7,390 nucleotides of DNA from positions 1 to 7,390 of IMG/VR virus record IMGVR_UViG_2695420478_000017. One strand, given 5' to 3'. This DNA is from a virus. Its lineage: Duplodnaviria > Heunggongvirae > Uroviricota > Caudoviricetes. Made by a program: the position numbers and the translations under genes. Under the pieces are notes generated by a model that searched no databases, was not told the origin of the DNA, and saw only the letters and a list, made by a program, of their open reading frames with translations. Numbering within the stretch: position 1 is the stretch's first letter; every line of letters starts with the position of its first letter. Below, piece by piece: positions 1-7,390 of the stretch.

Positions 1-24
1 CGGCAGAAGCAGAAAAAGCTTATT

Positions 25-570
25 ATGCTTCCATCGGAAACGATGATCTGGCAGCCTGAGTTCACAGATAAAACACTCTCCAGGAAACCCGGGGCGGTTC
101 AAACCGAAGAAGTGGACCAGCTGGCATCAAAGTTAATGGCTGCAAGTGAGGAACTTCAAAAGCTGGGATGTTCATTTTACTCATGCGATGTCAGTTCATG
201 TTCGATTTATCTGACTGTATCTGGAAGAAGGGTTGGCTGGCATTCATACGGAAAAGACGGCAACGGTGAAGATATATTGCTCCCTACCCCCGACAAAGAT
301 AAATGCATGTTTGACGCAGAACACAAAATAACAAAAAGGTTTGATGAAATCTGCGCATTGCAACAAAAACTTGAAGCCAGGAAAAAGGATATAGAATCAA
401 ACGTATGGGCTGCTTTGAACTCAGTCACAACAGTTAAGCGACTTATTGAAGTTTGGCCTGAAAGCAAAGAGTTGCTACCAAAAGAAGCAGATAAAGCAAG
501 TGCAGCACTTCCTGCTTTACGGGTAGAAGATTTGAATAAGATGATTGGACTTCCTTCCGAGGCCGCATAA
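25..570 (+). CDS. Hypothetical protein, 181 aa from first ATG; start uncertain and possibly 5'-partial
   Basis: Long ORF with protein-like composition in the slot upstream of cIII where lambda carries ea10/ral. The frame is open back to position 1 and no strong SD precedes the ATG at 25 or 43, so the gene may begin upstream of the window. Product not recognised. Confidence 0.5.
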   Translation: MLPSETMIWQPEFTDKTLSRKPGAVQTEEVDQLASKLMAASEELQKLGCSFYSCDVSSCSIYLTVSGRRVGWHSYGKDGNGEDILLPTPDKDKCMFDAEHKITKRFDEICALQQKLEARKKDIESNVWAALNSVTTVKRLIEVWPESKELLPKEADKASAALPALRVEDLNKMIGLPSEAA

Positions 571-585
571 TCGGCCTTTATTTTT
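560..585 (+). terminator. Putative intrinsic terminator (stem aggccg/cggcct, 6-nt loop, then TTATTTTT)
   Basis: Hairpin at 560-577 followed by a T-rich tract at 578-585; it overlaps the stop codon of the upstream ORF. Confidence 0.4.
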
Positions 586-614
586 GGCATAAACAACAGA
601 ATAAACACTGCACT

Positions 615-642
615 GTGTATTCATTCCAACGAGTGAATACAC
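615..642 (+). other. Strong 12-bp inverted repeat / RNA hairpin, 4-nt loop, no U-tract
   Basis: gtgtattcattc (615-626) pairs with gagtgaatacac (631-642) with one G-U wobble; loop is caac. Not followed by a T run. Confidence 0.4.
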
Positions 643-704
643 GGAGCAATGTCGCTCGTAACTAAACAGGAGCCGACTTGTTCTGATTATTGGAAATCTT
701 CTTT

Positions 705-728
705 GCCCTCCAATGTGAGGGCTTTTTT
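705..728 (+). terminator. Intrinsic terminator (gccctc / caatgt / gagggc + TTTTTT)
   Basis: 6-bp GC-rich stem at 705-710 and 717-722, followed directly by six T at 723-728. Confidence 0.55.
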
Positions 729-794
729 ATATGCATACCAATAACGCTTCACTAGAGGCGTTTTCGTTATGTGTAAATAAATAAGGAGCACACC

Positions 795-959
795 ATGCAA
801 TATGCCATTGCAGGGTGGCCTGTTGCTGGCTGCCCTTCCGAATCTTTACTTGAACGAATCACCCGTAAATTACGTGACGGATGGAAACGCCTTATCGACA
901 TACTTAATCAGCCAGGAGTTCCCAAAAATGGATCAAACACTTATGGCTATCCAGACTAA
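795..959 (+). CDS. cIII: CIII, protease (FtsH) inhibitor that stabilises CII
   Basis: Translation [54 protein letters not shown] (54 aa) matches lambda CIII as recalled; SD TAAGGAG at 782-788. It is not in the ORF track as a separate ORF because it overlaps the frame-1 ORF 802-1071. Confidence 0.9.
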   Translation: MQYAIAGWPVAGCPSESLLERITRKLRDGWKRLIDILNQPGVPKNGSNTYGYPD

Positions 960-1071
960 ATTCACTATCGCCACTTTTATTGGTGATGAAAAGATGTTTC
1001 GTGAAGCCGTCGACGCTTATAAAAAATGGATATTAATACTGAAACTGAGATCAAGCAAAAGCATTCACTAA
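928..1071 (+). CDS. kil: Kil, host cell-division (FtsZ) inhibitor
   Basis: Internal Met of track ORF 802-1071 gives [47 protein letters not shown] (47 aa), matching lambda Kil; overlaps the cIII 3' end by 32 nt as in lambda. Confidence 0.85.
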
Positions 1072-1091
1072 CCCCTTTCCTGTTTTCCTAA
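1026..1091 (+). pseudogene. gam: Frame-disrupted remnant of the long-form Gam N-terminal extension
   Basis: ATG at 1026 encodes [18 protein letters not shown] then LFS-stop. The continuation [29 protein letters not shown] is readable in the GamS frame from about 1079. The two ATGs are 119 nt apart (not a multiple of 3). Confidence 0.6.
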
Positions 1092-1144
1092 TCAGCCCGG
1101 CATTTCGCGGGCGATATTTTCACAGCTATTTCAGGAGTTCAGCC

Positions 1145-1441
1145 ATGAACGCTTATTACATTCAGGATCGTCTTGAGGCTCAGAGCTGGGCGCGTCACTA
1201 CCAGCAGATCGCCCGTGAAGAGAAAGAGGCAGAACTGGCAGACGACATGGAAAAAGGCCTGCCCCAGCACCTGTTTGAATCGCTATGCATCGATCATTTG
1301 CAACGCCACGGGGCCAGCAAAAAAGCCATTATCCGTGCGTTTGATGACGATGTTGAGTTTCAGGAGCGCATGGCAGAACACATCCGGTACATGGTTGAAA
1401 CCATTGCTCACCATCAGGTTGATATTGATTCAGAGGTATAA
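1145..1441 (+). CDS. gam: Gam, short form (GamS, 98 aa), RecBCD inhibitor
   Basis: Translation [21 protein letters not shown]...[10 protein letters not shown] matches lambda Gam; strong SD AGGAG at 1133-1137, 7 nt before the ATG. Confidence 0.9.
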
Positions 1442-1446
1442 AACGG

Positions 1447-2217
1447 ATGAGTACAGCACTCGCAACGCTGGCAGGGAAGCTGGCTGAACGTGTCGGCATG
1501 GATTCTGTCGACCCACAGGAACTGATCACCACTCTTCGCCAGACGGCATTTAAAGGCGATGCCAGCGATGCGCAGTTCATCGCATTGTTGATCGTCGCCA
1601 ACCAGTACGGCCTTAATCCGTGGACGAAAGAAATTTACGCCTTCCCTGATAAGCAGAACGGCATCGTTCCGGTGGTGGGCGTTGATGGCTGGTCCCGCAT
1701 CATCAATGAAAACCAGCATTTTGATGGCATGGACTTTGAGCAGGACAATGAATCCTGTACATGCCGGATTTACCGCAAGGACCGTAATCATCCGATCTGC
1801 GTTACCGAATGGATGGATGAATGCCGCCGCGAACCATTCAAAACCCGCGAAGGCAGAGAAATCACGGGGCCGTGGCAGTCGCATCCTAAACGGATGTTAC
1901 GGCATAAAGCTATGATTCAGTGTGCCCGTCTGGCCTTCGGATTTGCTGGTATCTATGACAAGGATGAAGCCGAGCGCATTGTCGAAAATACTGCATACAC
2001 TGCAGAACGCCAGCCGGAACGCGACATCACTCCGGTTAACGATGAAACCATGCAGGAGATTAACACTCTGCTAATCGCCCTGGATAAAACATGGGATGAC
2101 GACTTATTGCCGCTCTGTTCCCAGATATTTCGCCGCGACATTCGCGCATCGTCAGAACTGACACAGGCCGAAGCAGTGAAAGCTCTTGGATTCCTGAAAC
2201 AGAAAGCCACTGAGTAG
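1447..2217 (+). CDS. bet: Bet (Red-beta) single-strand annealing protein, 256 aa; C-terminus 5 aa shorter than lambda Bet
   Basis: Translation matches lambda Bet from [26 protein letters not shown] to ...LGFLKQKA; it ends at TAG 2215-2217, while the lambda-position stop TGA at 2230-2232 is still in frame downstream. Confidence 0.93.
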
Positions 2218-2228
2218 AAGGTGGCAGC

Positions 2229-2909
2229 ATGACACCGGACATTATCCTGCAGCGTACCGGGATCGACGTGAGAGCTGTCGAACAGGGGGATGATGCATGG
2301 CACAAATTACGGCTCGGCGTCATCACCGCTTCAGAAGTTCACAACGTGATAGCAAAGCCCCGCTCAGGAAAGAAGTGGCCTGACATGAAAATGTCCTACT
2401 TCCACACCCTGCTGGCTGAGGTTTGCACCGGTGTGGCTCCGGAAGTTAATGCTAAGGCGCTGGCCTGGGGAAAACAGTACGAGAACGACGCCAGAACCCT
2501 CTTTGAGTTCACTTCCGGCGTTAATGTTACTGAATCCCCGATCATCTATCGCGACGAAAGTATGCGCACCGCCTGCTCTCCCGATGGTTTATGCAGTGAC
2601 GGCAACGGCCTTGAACTGAAATGCCCGTTTACCTCCCGGGATTTCATGAAATTCCGGCTCGGTGGTTTCGAGGCCATAAAATCGGCTTACCTGGCCCAGG
2701 TGCAGTACAGCATGTGGGTGACACGAAAAGATGCCTGGTACTTTGCCAACTATGACCCGCGTATGAAGCGTGAAGGCCTGCATTATGTCGTGGTTGAGCG
2801 GGATGAAAAGTACATGGCGGGTTTTGACGAGATGGTGCCGGAGTTCATCGAAAAAATGGACGAGGCACTGGCTGAAATTGGTTTTGTATTTGGGGAGCAA
2901 TGGCGATGA
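2229..2909 (+). CDS. exo: Exo (Red-alpha) 5'-3' dsDNA exonuclease, 226 aa
   Basis: Translation [50 protein letters not shown]...[10 protein letters not shown] matches lambda Exo with a few substitutions; SD AGGTGG upstream. Confidence 0.93.
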
Positions 2910-3088
2910 AGCATCCTCACGATAATATCCGGGTAGGTGCGATCACTTTCGTCTACTCCGTTACAAAGCGAGGCTGGGTATTTCCCGGCCTTTCTGTTAT
3001 CCAAAATCCACTGAAAGCCCAGCGGCTGGCTGAGGAGATAAATAATAAACGAGGGGCTGTATGCACAAAGCATCTCCTGTTGAGTTAA
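2906..3088 (+). CDS. Small protein, lambda orf60a-like (60 aa from ATG 2906; alternative ATG at 2900 gives 62 aa)
   Basis: ORF directly after exo; ATG 2906 overlaps the exo stop as ATGA, and length and position match lambda orf60a as recalled. The sequence match itself is from memory and unverified. Confidence 0.55.
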
Positions 3089-3252
3089 GAACGAGCATTG
3101 AGATGGCACATAGCCTTGCTCAAATTGGAGTCAGGTTTGTGCCAATACCAGTAGAAACAGACGAAGAATTTCATACGTTAGCCACATCCCTTTCGCAAAA
3201 GCTGGAAATGATGGTGGCGAAAGCAGAAGCAGATGAGAGAGACCTGGTATGA
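3061..3252 (+). CDS. Small protein, lambda orf63-like (63 aa)
   Basis: 63-codon ORF overlapping the previous gene by 28 nt, same geometry as lambda orf63/orf60a; translation [63 protein letters not shown]. Confidence 0.6.
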   Translation: MHKASPVELRTSIEMAHSLAQIGVRFVPIPVETDEEFHTLATSLSQKLEMMVAKAEADERDLV

Positions 3253-3332
3253 CAACCACTGAATGCATTTTTCTGGCAGCGGGCTTCATATTCTGTGTGC
3301 TTATGCTTGCCGACATGGGACTTGTTCAATGA
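3249..3332 (+). CDS. Candidate small hydrophobic (membrane) peptide, 27 aa
   Basis: ATG 3249 overlaps the orf63-like stop (ATGA) and its stop TGA 3330-3332 overlaps the next ATG at 3329 (ATGA). Translation MTTTECIFLAAGFIFCVLMLADMGLVQ has a hydrophobic core consistent with one transmembrane helix. Too short for the ORF track. Confidence 0.35.
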   Translation: MTTTECIFLAAGFIFCVLMLADMGLVQ

Positions 3333-3544
3333 CACCTCAGCAAGAAAACGCCCTTCGCAGTATTGCCCGTCAGGCTAATTCTGAAATCAAAAAAGCCAGA
3401 CAGCAGTTTCCGGATAAAAACGTCGATGACATTTGCCGTAGCGTACTGAAGAAGCACCGCGAAACGGTAACGCTGATGGGATTCACACCGACTCATTTAA
3501 GCCTGGCGATCGGCATGTTAAACGGCGTCTTTAAGGAACGGTGA
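3329..3544 (+). CDS. Hypothetical protein, 71 aa (track ORF 3263-3544 trimmed to the coupled internal ATG)
   Basis: ORF in frame with track ORF 3263-3544; start at 3329 preferred because it is translationally coupled to the upstream peptide. Translation MTPQQENALRSIARQANSEIKKARQQFPDKNVDDICRSVLKKHRETVTLMGFTPTHLSLAIGMLNGVFKER. Product not recognised. Confidence 0.45.
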   Translation: MTPQQENALRSIARQANSEIKKARQQFPDKNVDDICRSVLKKHRETVTLMGFTPTHLSLAIGMLNGVFKER

Positions 3545-3566
3545 GCATGAAAAACAAAATCATCAT

Positions 3567-3590
3567 GGAGCTACAGGCTCCTTTTTTATT
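3567..3590 (+). terminator. Putative intrinsic terminator (ggagc / tacag / gctcc + TTTTTTATT)
   Basis: 5-bp GC-rich stem at 3567-3571 and 3577-3581, then six T at 3582-3587. Confidence 0.4.
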
Positions 3591-3642
3591 ATTCGCATTC
3601 ACCCTCAAGCGTATTAACCAACAATTCAGGGATTAATGAAAG

Positions 3643-3864
3643 ATGGCAGACATCATTGATTCAGCATCAGAAATTGAAGAATTACAGCGCAACACAGCAA
3701 TAAAAATGCGCCGCCTGAACCACCAGGCTATATCTGCCACTCATTGTTGTGAGTGTGGCGATCCGATAGATGAGCGAAGACGCCTGGCTGTTCAGGGTTG
3801 TCGGACTTGTGCAAGTTGCCAGGAGGATCTGGAACTTATCAGTAAACAGAGAGGTTCGAAGTGA
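3643..3864 (+). CDS. TraR/DksA-family C4-type zinc-finger protein (73 aa), likely RNA polymerase secondary-channel binder
   Basis: Translation carries CCECGDPIDERRRLAVQGCRTCASCQ, i.e. two Cys pairs (CxxC...CxxC) near the C-terminus with an acidic N-terminal segment, the layout of TraR-like phage and plasmid proteins. Confidence 0.7.
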   Translation: MADIIDSASEIEELQRNTAIKMRRLNHQAISATHCCECGDPIDERRRLAVQGCRTCASCQEDLELISKQRGSK

Positions 3865-4631
3865 GCGAAATTAATTATCAGGCACTGCGTGAAAAGGCAG
3901 AAAAAGCAACTAAAGGAAGCTACATCGTAGGGCATACATCTGTTAATCGGCATGGCAATTTAACAGGAGTTTTTGTTTGTCAAAAATGGAAAGGAGAACC
4001 CGGTGGCGTGATTGCAGAATGTCACGTTAACTGCCTGGTTGAAACAGATGCTCAGGCTTATGCAAACGCTGAATTCATAGCAGAGGCTAACCCGGCTACC
4101 GTGCTGGAACTGCTGGATGAACGGGAAAGAAACCAGCAATACATCAAACGCCGCGACCAGGAGAACGAGGAGATTGCGCTTACGGTTGGGAAGCTGCGTG
4201 TTGAGCTTGAAGCAGCAGAGAACAACCTTATTGATAGTGAATGCCATGTTGCTGAACTGGAAGAAGCTCTACGCGATAAGCAGGCGTTACTTGAAGCCTC
4301 AGAAAAGCGCAACGCAAAATTACAAAGCGAGAATGCATACATCCGCAACCGGTACAAAGAACTGGACCTATTAATCGGGAAAAACATTCTGGTCATGCAG
4401 GCTGCCATTATCGAATGGCAGGCAACTGGCGACGCTAAGAGCGGACTAGCATGGATTTATAACACACTGTTTGGCCCTGGCGAATTACCGGACGAATCTG
4501 AGAAAGATGCTCAGGCCTACTTTAATCGCAAATATGCACCGATTGACGAAAATCTCATGGAGCTTCACAAGTGGTTTTGGGAACAAAGTGAAGCCGAGCG
4601 CGCCGCTGGCATTCGCATCAAAGGAGAGTGA
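3861..4631 (+). CDS. Ea22-like protein (256 aa), GTG start overlapping the upstream stop
   Basis: N-terminus MSEINYQALRE, central LELLDERERNQQYIKRRDQENEEIALTVGKLRVELE coiled-coil segment and C-terminal AGIRIKGE resemble lambda Ea22 as recalled; GTGA overlap with the TraR-like gene; SD-like AGAGAGG upstream. Confidence 0.7.
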   Translation: MSEINYQALREKAEKATKGSYIVGHTSVNRHGNLTGVFVCQKWKGEPGGVIAECHVNCLVETDAQAYANAEFIAEANPATVLELLDERERNQQYIKRRDQENEEIALTVGKLRVELEAAENNLIDSECHVAELEEALRDKQALLEASEKRNAKLQSENAYIRNRYKELDLLIGKNILVMQAAIIEWQATGDAKSGLAWIYNTLFGPGELPDESEKDAQAYFNRKYAPIDENLMELHKWFWEQSEAERAAGIRIKGE

Positions 4632-4632
4632 T

Positions 4633-5280
4633 ATGAGCGCTATAACCAAAGATCGACTACTGACAATCAAGCAGTGGCGCGAAACATACGGACCGGGTAG
4701 CAACGTTGTACTGCCAGCAGAAGAAGCGGAAGAACTGGCACGAATTGCGCTGGCATCACTGGAACGCGAACAGATTCGCCACGAGCATGCCAAATGGTCT
4801 GACTCCACATTTGGCTGCGTTGGCCCCATTGGTCCGCTGAAACATCTCTCAAAAGAGGCACTGGAAGCCGCAGCCGAACCAGACGATCTTAGCGAGTGGG
4901 CTGATATGCAGTTTCTGTTGTGGGATGCACAGCGCCGTGCTGGCATCAGCGATGCTGAAATTAACGTTGCTATGGAAGATAAATTGAAGATCAACATGGA
5001 GCGCCAGTGGCCTGAGCCAAAAGATGGTGAGCCTCGCTTGCACATTAAAGAACCCGGCAACTCTCCGGTAACTCCTGATGGTTGGATAAGCTGTAGTGAG
5101 CGAATGCCGGATACCAAAACAGCCGTTCTTGTTGCCAGGGAGTTTGACAGGAAAGGTGACTGGCGAATGAAATGGGCGACTTACATCCCGGGGCATCCTG
5201 ACGCTAATGATGGGTGGATAATTCCTGGTGCGTCGTGGAAACCGTCACACTGGATGCCGCTACCAGAGCCTCCCCTTTGA
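4633..5280 (+). CDS. Two-domain protein (215 aa): MazG-like all-alpha NTP pyrophosphohydrolase-like N-domain (DUF550-type) plus DUF551-like C-domain
   Basis: Track ORF 4471-5280 trimmed to ATG 4633, which has SD AAGGAGAG and sits 2 nt after the Ea22-like stop. N-terminal motifs (EEAEEL, HAKWS, STFG, LKHLSKEALE, EWAD, INMERQW) and the C-terminal WISCSERMPD ... SHWMPLPEPP pattern match those families as recalled. Confidence 0.6.
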   Translation: MSAITKDRLLTIKQWRETYGPGSNVVLPAEEAEELARIALASLEREQIRHEHAKWSDSTFGCVGPIGPLKHLSKEALEAAAEPDDLSEWADMQFLLWDAQRRAGISDAEINVAMEDKLKINMERQWPEPKDGEPRLHIKEPGNSPVTPDGWISCSERMPDTKTAVLVAREFDRKGDWRMKWATYIPGHPDANDGWIIPGASWKPSHWMPLPEPPL

Positions 5281-5376
5281 TAGCTAAGCTTATACATATC
5301 TTTTACATCAGCAATCTATTGTTAATCTCCAATCAATGTTACGTTGTCATCTCTCTCATGCTTTGGAGGTAGTGAT

Positions 5377-5556
5377 ATGTCTTGTCCAAAATGCGGTTCT
5401 GGAAATATTGCAAAAGAAAAAACAATGCGTGGATGGTCTGATGATTATGTGTGCTGCGATTGCGGATACAACGACTCTAAAGACGCATTTGGAGAGCGTG
5501 GTAAAAACGATTTTGTCAAAATTAATAAAGAACGCGAAGGCAACGAAAAAAGCTAA
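5377..5556 (+). CDS. Small zinc-ribbon protein, 59 aa (CPKCG ... CCDCG)
   Basis: Track ORF 5344-5556 trimmed to ATG 5377, which has a strong SD GGAGG at 5365-5369 (7-nt spacing). Two CxxC-type motifs: MSCPKCGSGN ... YVCCDCGYN. Confidence 0.55.
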   Translation: MSCPKCGSGNIAKEKTMRGWSDDYVCCDCGYNDSKDAFGERGKNDFVKINKEREGNEKS

Positions 5557-5619
5557 TTTATTTATTCATATATGAAAACAATGTAACCAATATTCGAATT
5601 GAAGAACTGAAAGAACACC

Positions 5620-5644
5620 AAGCCGCCTGATGGCGGTTTTTTTT
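5620..5644 (+). terminator. Intrinsic terminator (ccgcc / tgat / ggcgg + 8 T)
   Basis: GC stem at 5623-5627 and 5632-5636, extendable by a G-U and two A-U pairs, followed by TTTTTTTT at 5637-5644. Confidence 0.6.
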
Positions 5645-5658
5645 ATTGGAGACAAGAA

Positions 5659-6003
5659 ATGTCAGATTTGGCTATGAAGGTTTTGAAATGGCAATCGACT
5701 GGCGATGTTGGCATCAGTAGCGCAACTCTTGCCTCAATCGCATGTGGACTGAAAAAGAATATCTATGGTCATCACTTCGGCGCTCCCCATGACGCAGCCG
5801 ATTTCAGACGATGCGTTGCACTTGTTGAGCAGATTCCAGAAATCAGAGATTCATTCAACAAGGTTGCAAAGCGCGTTCCGGCATTCAAAGGAATCCTCAA
5901 CGAATGGGATTCCCTCGTTGCTCTGTTGAAGTCTGAAATGAAGATACACGGAAACAAAGCACCAGAGACTTACAGAAGAATCAGCGAGCTACGCAAGGAC
6001 TAA
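5659..6003 (+). CDS. Hypothetical protein, 114 aa, unknown function
   Basis: Clean ORF with SD GGAGA at 5648-5652 (6-nt spacing); bracketed by a terminator upstream and a hairpin plus terminator downstream. Product not recognised. Confidence 0.6.
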   Translation: MSDLAMKVLKWQSTGDVGISSATLASIACGLKKNIYGHHFGAPHDAADFRRCVALVEQIPEIRDSFNKVAKRVPAFKGILNEWDSLVALLKSEMKIHGNKAPETYRRISELRKD

Positions 6004-6018
6004 CCATGAAATAACACC

Positions 6019-6037
6019 GCCTCACACTCGGTGAGGC
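6019..6037. other. Hairpin (gcctcac / actcg / gtgaggc) just after the stop of the 114-aa gene
   Basis: Perfect 7-bp inverted repeat with a 5-nt loop; no clear U-tract on either strand. Confidence 0.3.
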
Positions 6038-6072
6038 CTGTTCATTGCTCAATGATATCCAGACCTACCATC

Positions 6073-6096
6073 GCCGCATCAATGCGGCTTTTTCTT
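6073..6096 (+). terminator. Putative intrinsic terminator (gccgca / tcaa / tgcggc + TTTTTCTT)
   Basis: 6-bp stem at 6073-6078 and 6083-6088, followed by a T-rich tract at 6089-6096. Confidence 0.5.
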
Positions 6097-6108
6097 GCGT
6101 GTAATTGC
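6095..6108 (+). promoter_or_regulatory. CII-binding direct repeat TTGC-N6-TTGC, the pI-type activator site for int
   Basis: TTGC at 6095-6098 and at 6105-6108 (TTGCGTGTAATTGC), just upstream of the xis ATG at 6121. This is the arrangement known for lambda pI, whose transcript starts inside xis. Confidence 0.55.
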
Positions 6109-6120
6109 GGAGACTTTGCG

Positions 6121-6339
6121 ATGTACTTGACACTTCAGGAGTGGAACGCTCGCCAGCGACGCCCAAGAAGCCTTGAAACAGTTCGTCGATGGGTGCGCGA
6201 ATGCAGGATATTCCCTCCTCCGGTTAAGGATGGAAGAGAGTATCTGTTCCACGAATCAGCGGTAAAGGTTGACTTAAATCGACCAGTAACAGGTAGCCTT
6301 TTGAAGAGGATCAGAAATGGGAAGAAGGCGAAGTCATGA
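6121..6339 (+). CDS. xis: Excisionase Xis (72 aa)
   Basis: Internal Met of track ORF 6031-6339 gives MYLTLQEWNARQRRPRSLETVRRWVRECRIFPPPVKDGREYLFHESAVKVDLNRPVTGSLLKRIRNGKKAKS, matching lambda Xis; 3' end overlaps the int start. Confidence 0.9.
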   Translation: MYLTLQEWNARQRRPRSLETVRRWVRECRIFPPPVKDGREYLFHESAVKVDLNRPVTGSLLKRIRNGKKAKS

Positions 6340-7390
6340 GCGCCGGGATTTACCCCCTAACCTTTATATAAGAAACAATGGATATTACTGCTACAGGGAC
6401 CCAAGGACGGGTAAAGAGTTTGGTTTAGGCCGAGACAGGAGGATAGCAATCACTGAAGCAATACAGGCCAATATTGAGTTACTCTCAGACAGCGGACGCA
6501 AATCACTAATAGACAGAATTAAAGGCGGTGACGCAATCACTCTTCATGTGTGGCTTGACCGATATGAAACAATCCTCACCGAAAGGGGGATCAGGCCGAA
6601 AACTCTACTCGACTACGCCAGCAAAATCAGGGCAATCCGAAGAAAATTGCCGGACAAACCGCTCACTGACATATCAACGAAAGAAGTGGCAGCAATGCTA
6701 AACACCTACGTAGCAGAAGGTAAAGCAGCTTCCGCAAAATTAATCAGGTCAACCCTTGTTGACGTTTTTCGTGAAGCAATAGCCGAGGGGCATGTGGCAA
6801 CGAATCCGGTAACAGCAACCCGTACAGCAAAGTCAGAAGTAAGGCGCTCAAGGCTGACAGCTAATGAGTATGTCGAGATTTACCATGCAGCCGAACCTCT
6901 CCCTATCTGGCTAAGGCTGGCGATGGATTTGGCCGTCGTTACAGGGCAGAGAGTCGGCGATTTGTGCAGAATGAAATGGTCAGACATAAACGACAACCAT
7001 CTTCACATTGAACAGAGTAAAACAGGGGCTAAACTCGCCATTCCGCTAACGCTAACGATTGACGCGCTCAATATCTCATTGGCTGATACACTACAGAAAT
7101 GCAGGGAGGCCAGCAGCAGTGAAACTATAATCGCATCAAAGCATTACGATCCTCTTTCCCCGAAAACAGTATCAAAGTATTTTACAAAGGCGAGAAATGC
7201 ATCTGGACTCTCATTTGATGGAAACCCGCCAACATTCCATGAACTGCGTAGCCTGTCAGCGAGGCTATACCGGAACCAGATTGGCGATAAATTTGCTCAA
7301 CGTCTTCTCGGGCATAAATCAGATTCAATGGCGGCGCGGTATAGAGACAGCCGTGGACGGGAATGGGACAAAATTGAAATCGACAAATGA
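6317..7390 (+). CDS. int: Tyrosine-family site-specific integrase Int (357 aa)
   Basis: N-terminus MGRRRSHERRDLPPNLYIRNNGYYCYRDPRTGKEFGLGRDRRIAITEAIQANIEL matches lambda Int; C-terminal catalytic signature present (VVTGQRVGDL, HELRSLSARLY, LLGHKSDSMAARYRD). Stop codon is the last 3 nt of the window. Confidence 0.95.
   Translation: MGRRRSHERRDLPPNLYIRNNGYYCYRDPRTGKEFGLGRDRRIAITEAIQANIELLSDSGRKSLIDRIKGGDAITLHVWLDRYETILTERGIRPKTLLDYASKIRAIRRKLPDKPLTDISTKEVAAMLNTYVAEGKAASAKLIRSTLVDVFREAIAEGHVATNPVTATRTAKSEVRRSRLTANEYVEIYHAAEPLPIWLRLAMDLAVVTGQRVGDLCRMKWSDINDNHLHIEQSKTGAKLAIPLTLTIDALNISLADTLQKCREASSSETIIASKHYDPLSPKTVSKYFTKARNASGLSFDGNPPTFHELRSLSARLYRNQIGDKFAQRLLGHKSDSMAARYRDSRGREWDKIEIDK

Follow-up and report, generated by a model that had tools for sequence, protein, structure and literature searches.

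What occupies the 2.75 kb between orf63 and xis in a 7,390-nucleotide stretch of Caudoviricetes DNA (positions 1 to 7,390 of IMG/VR record IMGVR_UViG_2695420478_000017, hereafter the window), and where did it come from? A preliminary description had read positions 3249-6003 as a mosaic accessory block that replaces the ea8.5/ea22/orf61 region of phage lambda and that is likely to hold new host-takeover or anti-defence functions. Gene order and comparison of annotations identify the 7.4-kb window as a lambdoid early-left (pL) operon, read along the direction of transcription in the order cIII, gam, bet, exo, orf60a, orf63, the flagged block, xis and int. The interval is best explained, with a probability of about 0.9, as the exo-xis region at the nonessential distal end of this N-antiterminated early operon, made of a conserved cassette and variable cargo. 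Each module has close relatives in named phages; only the combination is particular to this window.

The region is flanked by exo (2229-2909) and xis (6121-6339), all genes lie on the + strand as in the pL operon, and the order orf60a-orf63-orf61-orf73-ea22 is followed by variable genes between ea22 and xis. This is the published architecture of exo-xis regions, in which a conserved orf60a-orf63-orf61-orf73-ea22 block precedes variable downstream genes (PMC8614690; see also PMC10834534). The lambda exo-xis region (orf60a, orf63, orf61, orf73, ea22, ea8.5 and orf55) has the same position and orientation between exo and xis. In a search of 50,697 phage records, most of the window's length was matched by Shiga-toxin (Stx)-converting phages, phage 434 and lambda. 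BLASTN aligns window positions 733-3909 with lambda without a break at 97.1% identity, and positions 733-3877 with phage 434 at 98.5%; a three-way alignment of the window, lambda and 434 over 3200-3920 has a mean column identity of 97%. The features of the region, with lengths in amino acids (aa) and open reading frames abbreviated as ORFs, are as follows.

2900-3088, + strand: orf60a; Pfam DUF1317; 96.8% identical to lambda
3061-3252, + strand: orf63; Pfam DUF1382; 92.1% identical to lambda
3249-3332, + strand: 27-codon hydrophobic ORF (MTTTECIFLAAGFIFCVLMLADMGLVQ), a candidate micropeptide, with ATGA overlaps at both ends
3329-3544, + strand: orf61 in the intact 71-aa form; phrog_303, E=4.7e-36; DNA about 98% identical to lambda and 434
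3541-3636, + strand: 31-codon ORF, or 29 codons if counted from the first ATG; 27 of 31 residues match the lambda ORF
3643-3864, + strand: orf73, TraR-family regulator of the RNA polymerase secondary channel; 73 aa, 72/73 identical to lambda Orf73
3861-4631, + strand: ea22 of the 933W/Sakai type; 256 aa; Pfam Ead_Ea22 (PF13935), E=2.1e-35
4633-5280, + strand: EaA-like two-domain protein, DUF550 and DUF551 (Pfam); 215 aa
5281-5376, no strand assigned: AT-rich spacer upstream of eaG
5377-5556, + strand: eaG, a 59-aa CxxC...CxxC zinc-ribbon protein of the P22 'ea' region; phrog_2945, E=5e-31
5583-5642, + strand: remnant of lambda orf55 (last 15 codons and TGA, 5583-5630) with a terminator-like hairpin (5620-5639) and T-run; 60/60 identical to lambda
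5659-6003, + strand: 114-aa all-alpha protein, phrog_1229; 96% identical to a phage 434 protein
6019-6093, + strand: two hairpins past the 114-aa gene, the second (6073-6088 with T5) terminator-like and forming the right edge of the cassette
6095-6108, + strand: CII site TTGC-N6-TTGC in the pI region; in 434, the corresponding sequence carries pI promoter and CII site annotations
6121-6339, + strand: xis; 71/72 identical to lambda
6317-7390, + strand: int; 75% protein and 75.6% DNA identity to lambda

The preliminary description had counted seven ORFs in the block and had matched none but the Ea22-like one to lambda. All seven are present on the + strand, but an eighth (3541-3636, 31 aa) had been missed, and orf61 and orf73 both lie inside the unbroken lambda alignment. 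Since that alignment runs through to 3909, orf61 is retained rather than replaced: positions 3249-3909, which hold the 27-codon ORF, orf61, the 31-codon ORF, orf73 and the first 16 codons of ea22, are lambda sequence at 97% identity and make up about 24% of the block. The exchange thus does not start at orf63, and the interval replaced relative to lambda is 3910-6093. The first quarter of the block is accordingly found in reference lambda with annotated genes, and the remainder is not. As orf73 and the small ORFs are unannotated in the NCBI lambda record, they may simply not have been recognized by the earlier reader.

The proposal of a mosaic of exchangeable, nonessential early cargo is borne out by coverage across 80 IMG/VR loci that encode an identical Orf61, which we compared with the window; the boundaries and the novelty that went with the proposal are not, as the exo-xis architecture had already been published (PMC8614690, PMC10834534) and its host-takeover component, Orf73, characterized (PMC9239242). 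The segments are shared with the following numbers of loci.

3250-3800, conserved block: 80/80
3850-3899, start of ea22: 50/80
Ea22 N-terminal part: about 24-35/80
Ea22 C-terminal domain: 9-11/80
DUF550 part: 4-8/80
5050-5099, DUF550-DUF551 linker: 30/80
eaG: 1-2/80
5600-5649, hairpin: 24/80
114-aa gene: 11-13/80

Any given segment of 3900-6100 is therefore common to only 1-30 of the 80 loci. The linker and the hairpin stand out as peaks between poorly shared flanks (5583-5642 is common to 24 loci, its flanks to only 2-13), and mark sequences common to many otherwise different cassettes, as expected from recombination at conserved boundaries. Within 3910-6093, lambda sequence persists in three islands: the coiled coil of ea22 (4101-4217, 94.9%), the last eight codons of that gene (4604-4634) and 5583-5642. 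Judged from these alignments, the exchange points coincide with the first 16 codons of ea22, its coiled coil, its last 8 codons, the DUF550-DUF551 linker and the hairpin T-tracts before pI and xis, and we infer that recombination took place at these conserved linkers.

Comparison with individual phages provides insight into the origin of each module. Lambda shares the DNA from orf60a to codon 16 of ea22 (97%), Orf73, Xis and the hairpin with its T-run before pI and xis; it differs in a frameshifted orf61 (intact in the window), another Ea22 body and an integrase of 75% identity. Relative to lambda, the window lacks ea8.5, has orf55 cut to 15 codons and carries the DUF550-DUF551, eaG and 114-aa genes as extra. 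Phages 933W, VT2-Sakai and Phi24B have the conserved block with an intact orf61, the Ea22 variant of the window (96.5%) and, downstream, EaA-like genes that contain DUF551. The downstream set of 933W is otherwise different and longer (several hypothetical proteins and an ASCH-domain protein), with neither eaG nor the 114-aa gene at that position, and its xis and int are unrelated. Phage 434 shares the conserved block at 98.5% as far as 3877, and the arrangement of its right end is identical: the orf55 hairpin, the 114-aa gene (96%), the second hairpin, the pI/CII site and xis. It differs in having a full orf55 and no Ea22 gene, two membrane-protein genes on the opposite strand taking the place of ea22, the DUF550-DUF551 gene and eaG. 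The 'ea' genes of the P22 early-left operon include an EaG that is 95% identical, and EaA-type DUF551 proteins are shared; in the P22-like phage SPN9CC the order eaA, 114-aa homolog, int mirrors that of the window. P22 differs by having erf/abc recombination genes instead of bet/exo/gam and by having no orf60a-orf73 cassette. The modules thus have separate distributions, Ea22 in 933W and Sakai, eaG in P22 and Sf101, and the 114-aa gene in 434 and P22-like phages. Two E. coli prophages, one of them in strain 13E0767, combine an equal outer frame with different middle modules, and the eaG, orf55-stub and 114-aa arrangement recurs in 116 of 5,426 complete E. coli genomes, five times at 100% identity.

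The right edge of the replaced interval can be read directly from the terminators. In lambda, the T-run of the orf55 hairpin runs straight into CTTGCGTGTAATTGCGGAGACTTTGCG-ATG(xis). In both 434 and the window, the same T-run is followed by a ribosome-binding site and the start of the 114-aa gene, and it is the second hairpin with its T-run (6073-6093) that restores the junction with the CTTGCG...ATG(xis) sequence. The 114-aa gene is thus a cassette that carries its own terminator and whose insertion point is precisely the T-tract of a terminator. The element corresponding to the second hairpin is annotated as a terminator in phage 434, and beyond the T-run that ends at 6093 the sequence is again colinear with lambda. 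The statement that xis and int track lambda closely holds for Xis and not for Int. The right end of the prophage of E. coli 13E0767 (locus L090, 6637-10549) has eaG, the 114-aa gene, xis and int as in the window and is integrated beside torS; its integrase has the length of ours (357 aa), which suggests that this type of int targets a torS-proximal site.

Translational coupling of the left part, which the preliminary description had called a tightly coupled set, is evident. Overlaps of four nucleotides (ATGA or GTGA) join orf63 to the 27-codon ORF, the latter to orf61, orf61 to the 31-codon ORF, and orf73 to ea22, and a single nucleotide separates ea22 from the DUF550 gene. Larger gaps of 96, 102 and 117 nucleotides precede eaG, the 114-aa gene and xis, respectively.

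The small ORFs of the conserved cassette deserve attention of their own. The protein encoded by the 27-codon ORF is 100% identical in lambda and is unannotated in all records compared. The frame is intact in 85 of 89 related loci, where the variants consist of three single-residue changes only. Because orf61 is 100% identical and its upstream sequence nearly so across the 80 IMG/VR loci, no coding test by substitution pattern is possible, and more distant homologs give a mixed picture of its coding status. The ORF is not present upstream of the orf61 homologs of SfI or Klebsiella, and at the equivalent position before a distant orf61 homolog, Yersinia phage vB_YenM_29.18 has an unrelated, unannotated hydrophobic ORF of 31 codons (locus L089, about 503-598). 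On conservation and overlap, the 27-codon ORF may encode a genuine membrane micropeptide that annotations of lambda have so far missed. The 31-codon ORF is better documented: the conserved region is described as carrying a 31-aa peptide gene, orf2313 (PMC8614690), and the equivalent lambda ORF was detected by ribosome profiling. Annotations of phage 434 and of lambda record PV340536 include it. A hairpin with a T-run lies inside it (3567-3581, terminator scan).

The intact orf61 explains a peculiarity of lambda. The annotated 61-aa Orf61 of lambda shares MTPQQENALRSIARQANSEIKK with the 71-aa product and diverges thereafter. A poly-A run at 3389-3394 has six residues in the window, in phage 434 and in 84 of 89 loci, and seven in two independent lambda records (NC_001416 and PV340536, the latter from 2025; around 3715-3721 of lambda locus L001). 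Lambda Orf61 is truncated because of this extra A: the 61-aa form is a +1 frameshift allele of the 71-aa protein, and the intact 71-aa form is the common allele. In agreement with this, an earlier remark has it that lambda Orf61 'appears to be truncated' relative to Stx phages (PMC8614690). The Stx-phage literature uses a 93-aa form of orf61 that starts at the ATG at 3263 in window coordinates; the distant Klebsiella and Yersinia homologs begin at the equivalent of 3329. Homologs of orf61 are named 'cell division protein ZapA' in RefSeq (e.g., ST933Wp10 of NC_000924), a name that appears over-annotated. We rejected ZapA for orf61, as the Pfam match (PF05164) reaches 16.1 bits against a cut-off of 23.8 and covers only 33 residues. 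In Klebsiella phage ST101-KPC2phi6.1 (locus L088, 601-1039), an orf61 homolog of 47% identity is followed immediately by a TraR/DksA gene. The pairing of orf61 with orf73 is thus kept well beyond the lambdoid phages of E. coli, which suggests that the two genes work together.

Among the products of the cassette, Orf73 is the one whose action can be predicted best. Pfam zf-dskA_traR (PF01258) matches it at 35.8 bits (cut-off 24.9) and phrog_54 at E=2e-25, while NCBIfam TIGR02419 scores 55.7, just under its cut-off of 59.7. The N-terminus MADIIDSA contains the DxxDxA motif as D3, D6 and A8, and six cysteines are readable. The sole difference from lambda Orf73 is V to A (RRRLVVQG/RRRLAVQG). Lambda Orf73 competes with DksA for RNA polymerase and inhibits rrnB P1 with a half-maximal inhibitory concentration of about 50 nM in the absence of guanosine tetraphosphate (ppGpp); it requires D3 and D6 and, besides slowing the growth of the host, increases the yield of phage three- to four-fold (PMC9239242). 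Given near-identity, the window protein is expected to act on the RNA polymerase secondary channel as lambda Orf73 does. F-plasmid TraR and E. coli DksA have the DxxDxA N-terminal motif and a C4 zinc finger in common with Orf73, and lambda Orf73 binds the same site on RNA polymerase and inhibits rrnB P1 as they do (PMC9239242). Unlike TraR and DksA, lambda Orf73 activates promoters of amino-acid biosynthesis little if at all and contains two additional cysteines, and its role is in phage yield rather than in conjugation, as for TraR.

The first module of the replaced interval is the body of Ea22. Pfam PF13935 covers residues 2-141 (122.7 bits against a cut-off of 27), and the protein is 96.5% identical to ST933Wp09/L0069 of 933W and to its VT2-Sakai counterpart. 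Overall identity to lambda Ea22 is 35%, the shared islands being 3861-3909, 4101-4217 and 4604-4634. The layout comprises the shared N-terminus, a 63-aa insert relative to lambda, the coiled coil and a non-lambda C-terminal domain. Published work presents Ea22 as a tetramer that favors lysogeny and whose chain comprises an N-terminal segment, a coiled coil and a variable C-terminal domain, and in Stx phages it occurs as mosaic variants V1-V3, DUF551 being unique to V2 (PMC10834534). Pfam finds no DUF551 in the window Ea22, which also matches, at 96.5% identity, the proteins of 933W, Sakai and F422, phages listed as carrying V1 and V2 (PMC10834534); the protein would therefore be V1 by elimination, the V1 prototype sequence itself lying outside the comparison. 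Ea22 residues 145-243 (4293-4628) are hit with E=6.7e-35 by PADLOC model PDLC02890, which is named after 'DpdH' of the 7-deazaguanine Dpd system. All 120 closest relatives of this C-terminal domain are prophage Ea22-like proteins; none is named DpdH, and one was historically called 'enterohemolysin 2'. There are no dpd genes in the window, and open-access papers on dpd hardly mention DpdH. The match may reflect real homology or a contaminated model.

The next module is the DUF550-DUF551 protein. Its DUF550 part (PF04447, a MazG-like dATP/dGTP pyrophosphohydrolase family) scores 140.4 bits against a cut-off of 23 and covers model positions 1-96 of 97; DUF551 (PF04448) scores 76.7 bits against 22 at residues 150-214. 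Together with zf-dskA_traR and Ead_Ea22, these Pfam matches uphold the domain guesses of the preliminary description. Residues E75xxE78 and E88xxD91 are invariant in a 17-member family alignment and align with the EExxE and ExxD residues of MazZ from cyanophage S-2L (7ODY), which is also the best PDB profile match, marginal and non-significant at E=0.23. A single-sequence phmmer search of the PDB with the protein gave no match. Both PF04447 and the acidic ExxE...ExxD pattern, typical of all-alpha MazG-like nucleoside triphosphate pyrophosphohydrolases, are shared with MazZ and the DUF550 enzymes of Z-genome phages. The DUF550 protein of the Acinetobacter Z-genome phage SH-Ab 15497 converts dATP and dGTP to dAMP and dGMP with release of pyrophosphate (as cited in PMC12884076), and by analogy the DUF550 domain here most likely hydrolyzes dATP and dGTP to the monophosphates. 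The family itself is mosaic. Behind an N-terminal leader that varies, the DUF550 core and the linker (PEPKDGEPRLHIKEPGNSPVTPDGWISCSERMP) hardly change between members; DUF551 has a hypervariable interior, of which the 17 sequences show at least four unrelated versions, and the protein ends in the invariant C-terminus HWMPLPEPP.

Membership in PF04447 raises the question of whether the enzyme belongs to a DNA base-replacement pathway, that of 2-aminoadenine 'Z' genomes, since in Z-genome phages the characterized member of the family provides dGMP and eliminates dATP. Both the window and its close relatives, however, are ordinary lambdoid phages. Homologs form at least 8000 enterobacterial prophage clusters, EaA-like in several records, and the other enzymes of the pathway were always missing in the regions examined. 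The DUF550 proteins of Z phages form a monophyletic group of their own (PMC12884076), and the protein of the window differs from them in being fused to DUF551 rather than DUF5664. We rejected a Z-genome role because no pathway genes accompany the gene, and we give that possibility next to no weight.

Downstream of this gene the composition changes. Across 5251-5700 the GC content is about 0.36-0.40, and in the GC and codon-usage check that had been proposed eaG stands out, with GC 0.389 and GC at third codon positions (GC3) 0.317, unlike its neighbors. EaG is 94.9% identical to P22 EaG over 59 of 59 residues and 100% identical to Sf101 Eag. Lar restriction alleviation was tried and rejected as an assignment for EaG (PF14354, Lar_restr_allev). 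For eaA and eaG, a search of the literature on function turned up genome-description papers only. The orf55 stub that follows retains the residues VTNIRIEELKEHQAA and its stop codon at 5628-5630, and its hairpin region folds with z = -2.04.

The small genes at this end had been described as terminator-separated. Terminator-like hairpins with T-runs do lie on either side of the 114-aa gene, at 5620-5639 (between eaG and the 114-aa gene) and 6073-6088 (past it), but the terminator scan found none between the DUF551 gene and eaG, where the spacer 5281-5376 folds no better than shuffled sequence (z = -0.02). The scan for internal promoters gave nothing above chance (2 promoter-like sites found, 4.3 expected from shuffled controls), the spacer upstream of eaG included. 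These scans bear on the idea that eaG and the 114-aa gene are 'morons', expressed from their own promoters and terminators in the repressed prophage for the benefit of the lysogen. The spacers of 96-117 nucleotides that set both genes apart, the hairpins that bracket the 114-aa gene and the AT-richness of eaG (GC3 0.32), suggestive of foreign origin, would fit such genes. Against this, no sigma-70-like promoter was detected in the spacer upstream of eaG or of the 114-aa gene, promoter-like sites being fewer than in shuffled controls. Both genes are oriented as the pL transcript, and their homologs in P22-like phages and PY54 lie within early operons. Mainly because the promoter scan gave nothing above chance, we consider autonomous lysogenic expression improbable. 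Expression by read-through from pL is what we infer instead from gene orientation, the promoter scan and what is known of lambda.

The last cargo gene encodes the 114-aa protein, which matched phrog_1229 and no Pfam, NCBIfam or PADLOC model. Relatives occur in P22-like Salmonella phages, Yersinia PY54, about 150 Vibrio phages and Arthrobacter phages, and the profile search returned 2796 cluster representatives. Elsewhere the neighbors of the homologs are early accessory or recombination genes, and not always xis and int. AlphaFold2 predicts seven helices with confidence (predicted local distance difference test score, pLDDT, of 94); the fold has no significant neighbor in the PDB, and its matches in the viral library are uncharacterized proteins only. 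Ten longer relatives were considered. One of them (P0411, 558 aa) is a complete phage-type tRNA nucleotidyltransferase (PolyA_pol head, RNA-binding domain and HD) with a C-terminal phrog_1229 domain; this is a single case among the 2796 representatives and possibly a fused gene call. Protein P0307 has two tandem copies of the domain. Protein P0063, an apparent remote link between this family and PF04447, was rejected as a recombinant chimera and no homolog.

Could the variable cargo (DUF550-DUF551, EaG and the 114-aa protein) be mainly a counter-defense island, combining hydrolysis of nucleotides or signaling nucleotides, a zinc ribbon like that of restriction alleviation and a tRNA-related protector? 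It sits in the early, nonessential and highly exchangeable part of the operon, near inhibitors of host nucleases such as gam, and the DUF551 interior varies between invariant flanks as would a domain in an arms race. The weak similarity of EaG to Lar and the fusion of one 114-aa homolog to a phage tRNA nucleotidyltransferase also speak for it. Nevertheless, none of the proteins has a significant match to a characterized anti-defense protein. The Lar match falls below the Pfam cut-off (23.0 versus 28.6 bits), and the fusion is the solitary and perhaps artifactual case given above. The phenotypes published for exo-xis genes relate to lysis-lysogeny and to host transcription rather than to defense. 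We regard a counter-defense island as unlikely. Similarly, it is doubtful that one or more of the three uncharacterized cargo products has a new early function against host nucleic-acid or defense machinery. The best candidate for such a function would be the 114-aa protein, for which a tRNA-end-directed or counter-defense role is conceivable; DUF551, with its hypervariable interior between invariant flanks, may be the next.

The preferred reading, a conserved cassette followed by variable cargo in the distal pL operon, can be set out as a sequence of events. After infection or induction, N-modified RNA polymerase from pL would read through the hairpins and transcribe the entire interval, and the run of four-nucleotide overlaps would couple translation from orf60a through ea22. 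Orf73 would divert host RNA polymerase from ribosome synthesis, shutting down the promoters of ribosomal RNA and ribosomal-protein genes and raising phage yield. The Orf60a, Orf63 and Orf61 proteins, together with the Ea22 coiled-coil tetramer, would shift the lysis-lysogeny balance; genetic work in the literature indicates an influence of Ea22 and the small Orf proteins on this decision, as well as early expression from pL (PMC8614690, PMC4195576). The DUF550 domain would probably hydrolyze dATP and dGTP early and so perturb the deoxynucleoside triphosphate pool, an effect that we extend to this particular protein from its family. Positions 2900-3909 would then represent a conserved host-reprogramming cassette that continues into the conserved pieces of ea22. 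Positions 3910-6093 would be variable cargo assembled by recombination from modules circulating among enterobacterial temperate phages: the 933W-type Ea22 body, the EaA-like DUF550-DUF551 gene, P22 EaG, the dead orf55 stub and the terminator-bounded 114-aa cassette.

No observation contradicts the identification; some points limit the rest of the account. None of the 50,697 phage records contains the exact 2.75-kb combination in intact form, and among the 5,426 E. coli genomes just one covers 80% or more of it; the history of assembly is therefore deduced from the parts. The activity proposed for DUF550 is extrapolated from a distant relative in an Acinetobacter Z-genome phage. The AlphaFold2 model of the 215-aa protein, built from the 17-sequence alignment, is helical in the DUF550 part but unreliable (pLDDT 54), and for this reason we kept it out of the fold search.

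Two further observations concern the left end of the window. The first ORF (25-570, 181 aa) belongs to phrog_1965, function unknown, and ahead of the flagged block only 1-572 finds no match in either lambda or 434. This segment is a second variable module, at the position of ral/sieB in lambda and of the Nun-like gene in 434. The cIII thermoregulator (Rfam Lambda_thermo) is matched over its full length at 782-840 with 88.5 bits, outside the flagged block, and the Rfam scan of the window found nothing besides it.

The locus adds one more case of the modular exchange for which lambdoid phages have long been known, and its practical value lies in annotation. The intact 71-aa orf61 is the common form and laboratory lambda the exception, and the label 'ZapA' is unsupported; the boundaries of the modules coincide with short conserved linkers and terminator T-tracts. 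The uncharacterized cargo families are very abundant in prophages of E. coli and Salmonella. If these families do act on host defense or on nucleotide or tRNA metabolism, they would be relevant to the biology of Stx-prophage induction.

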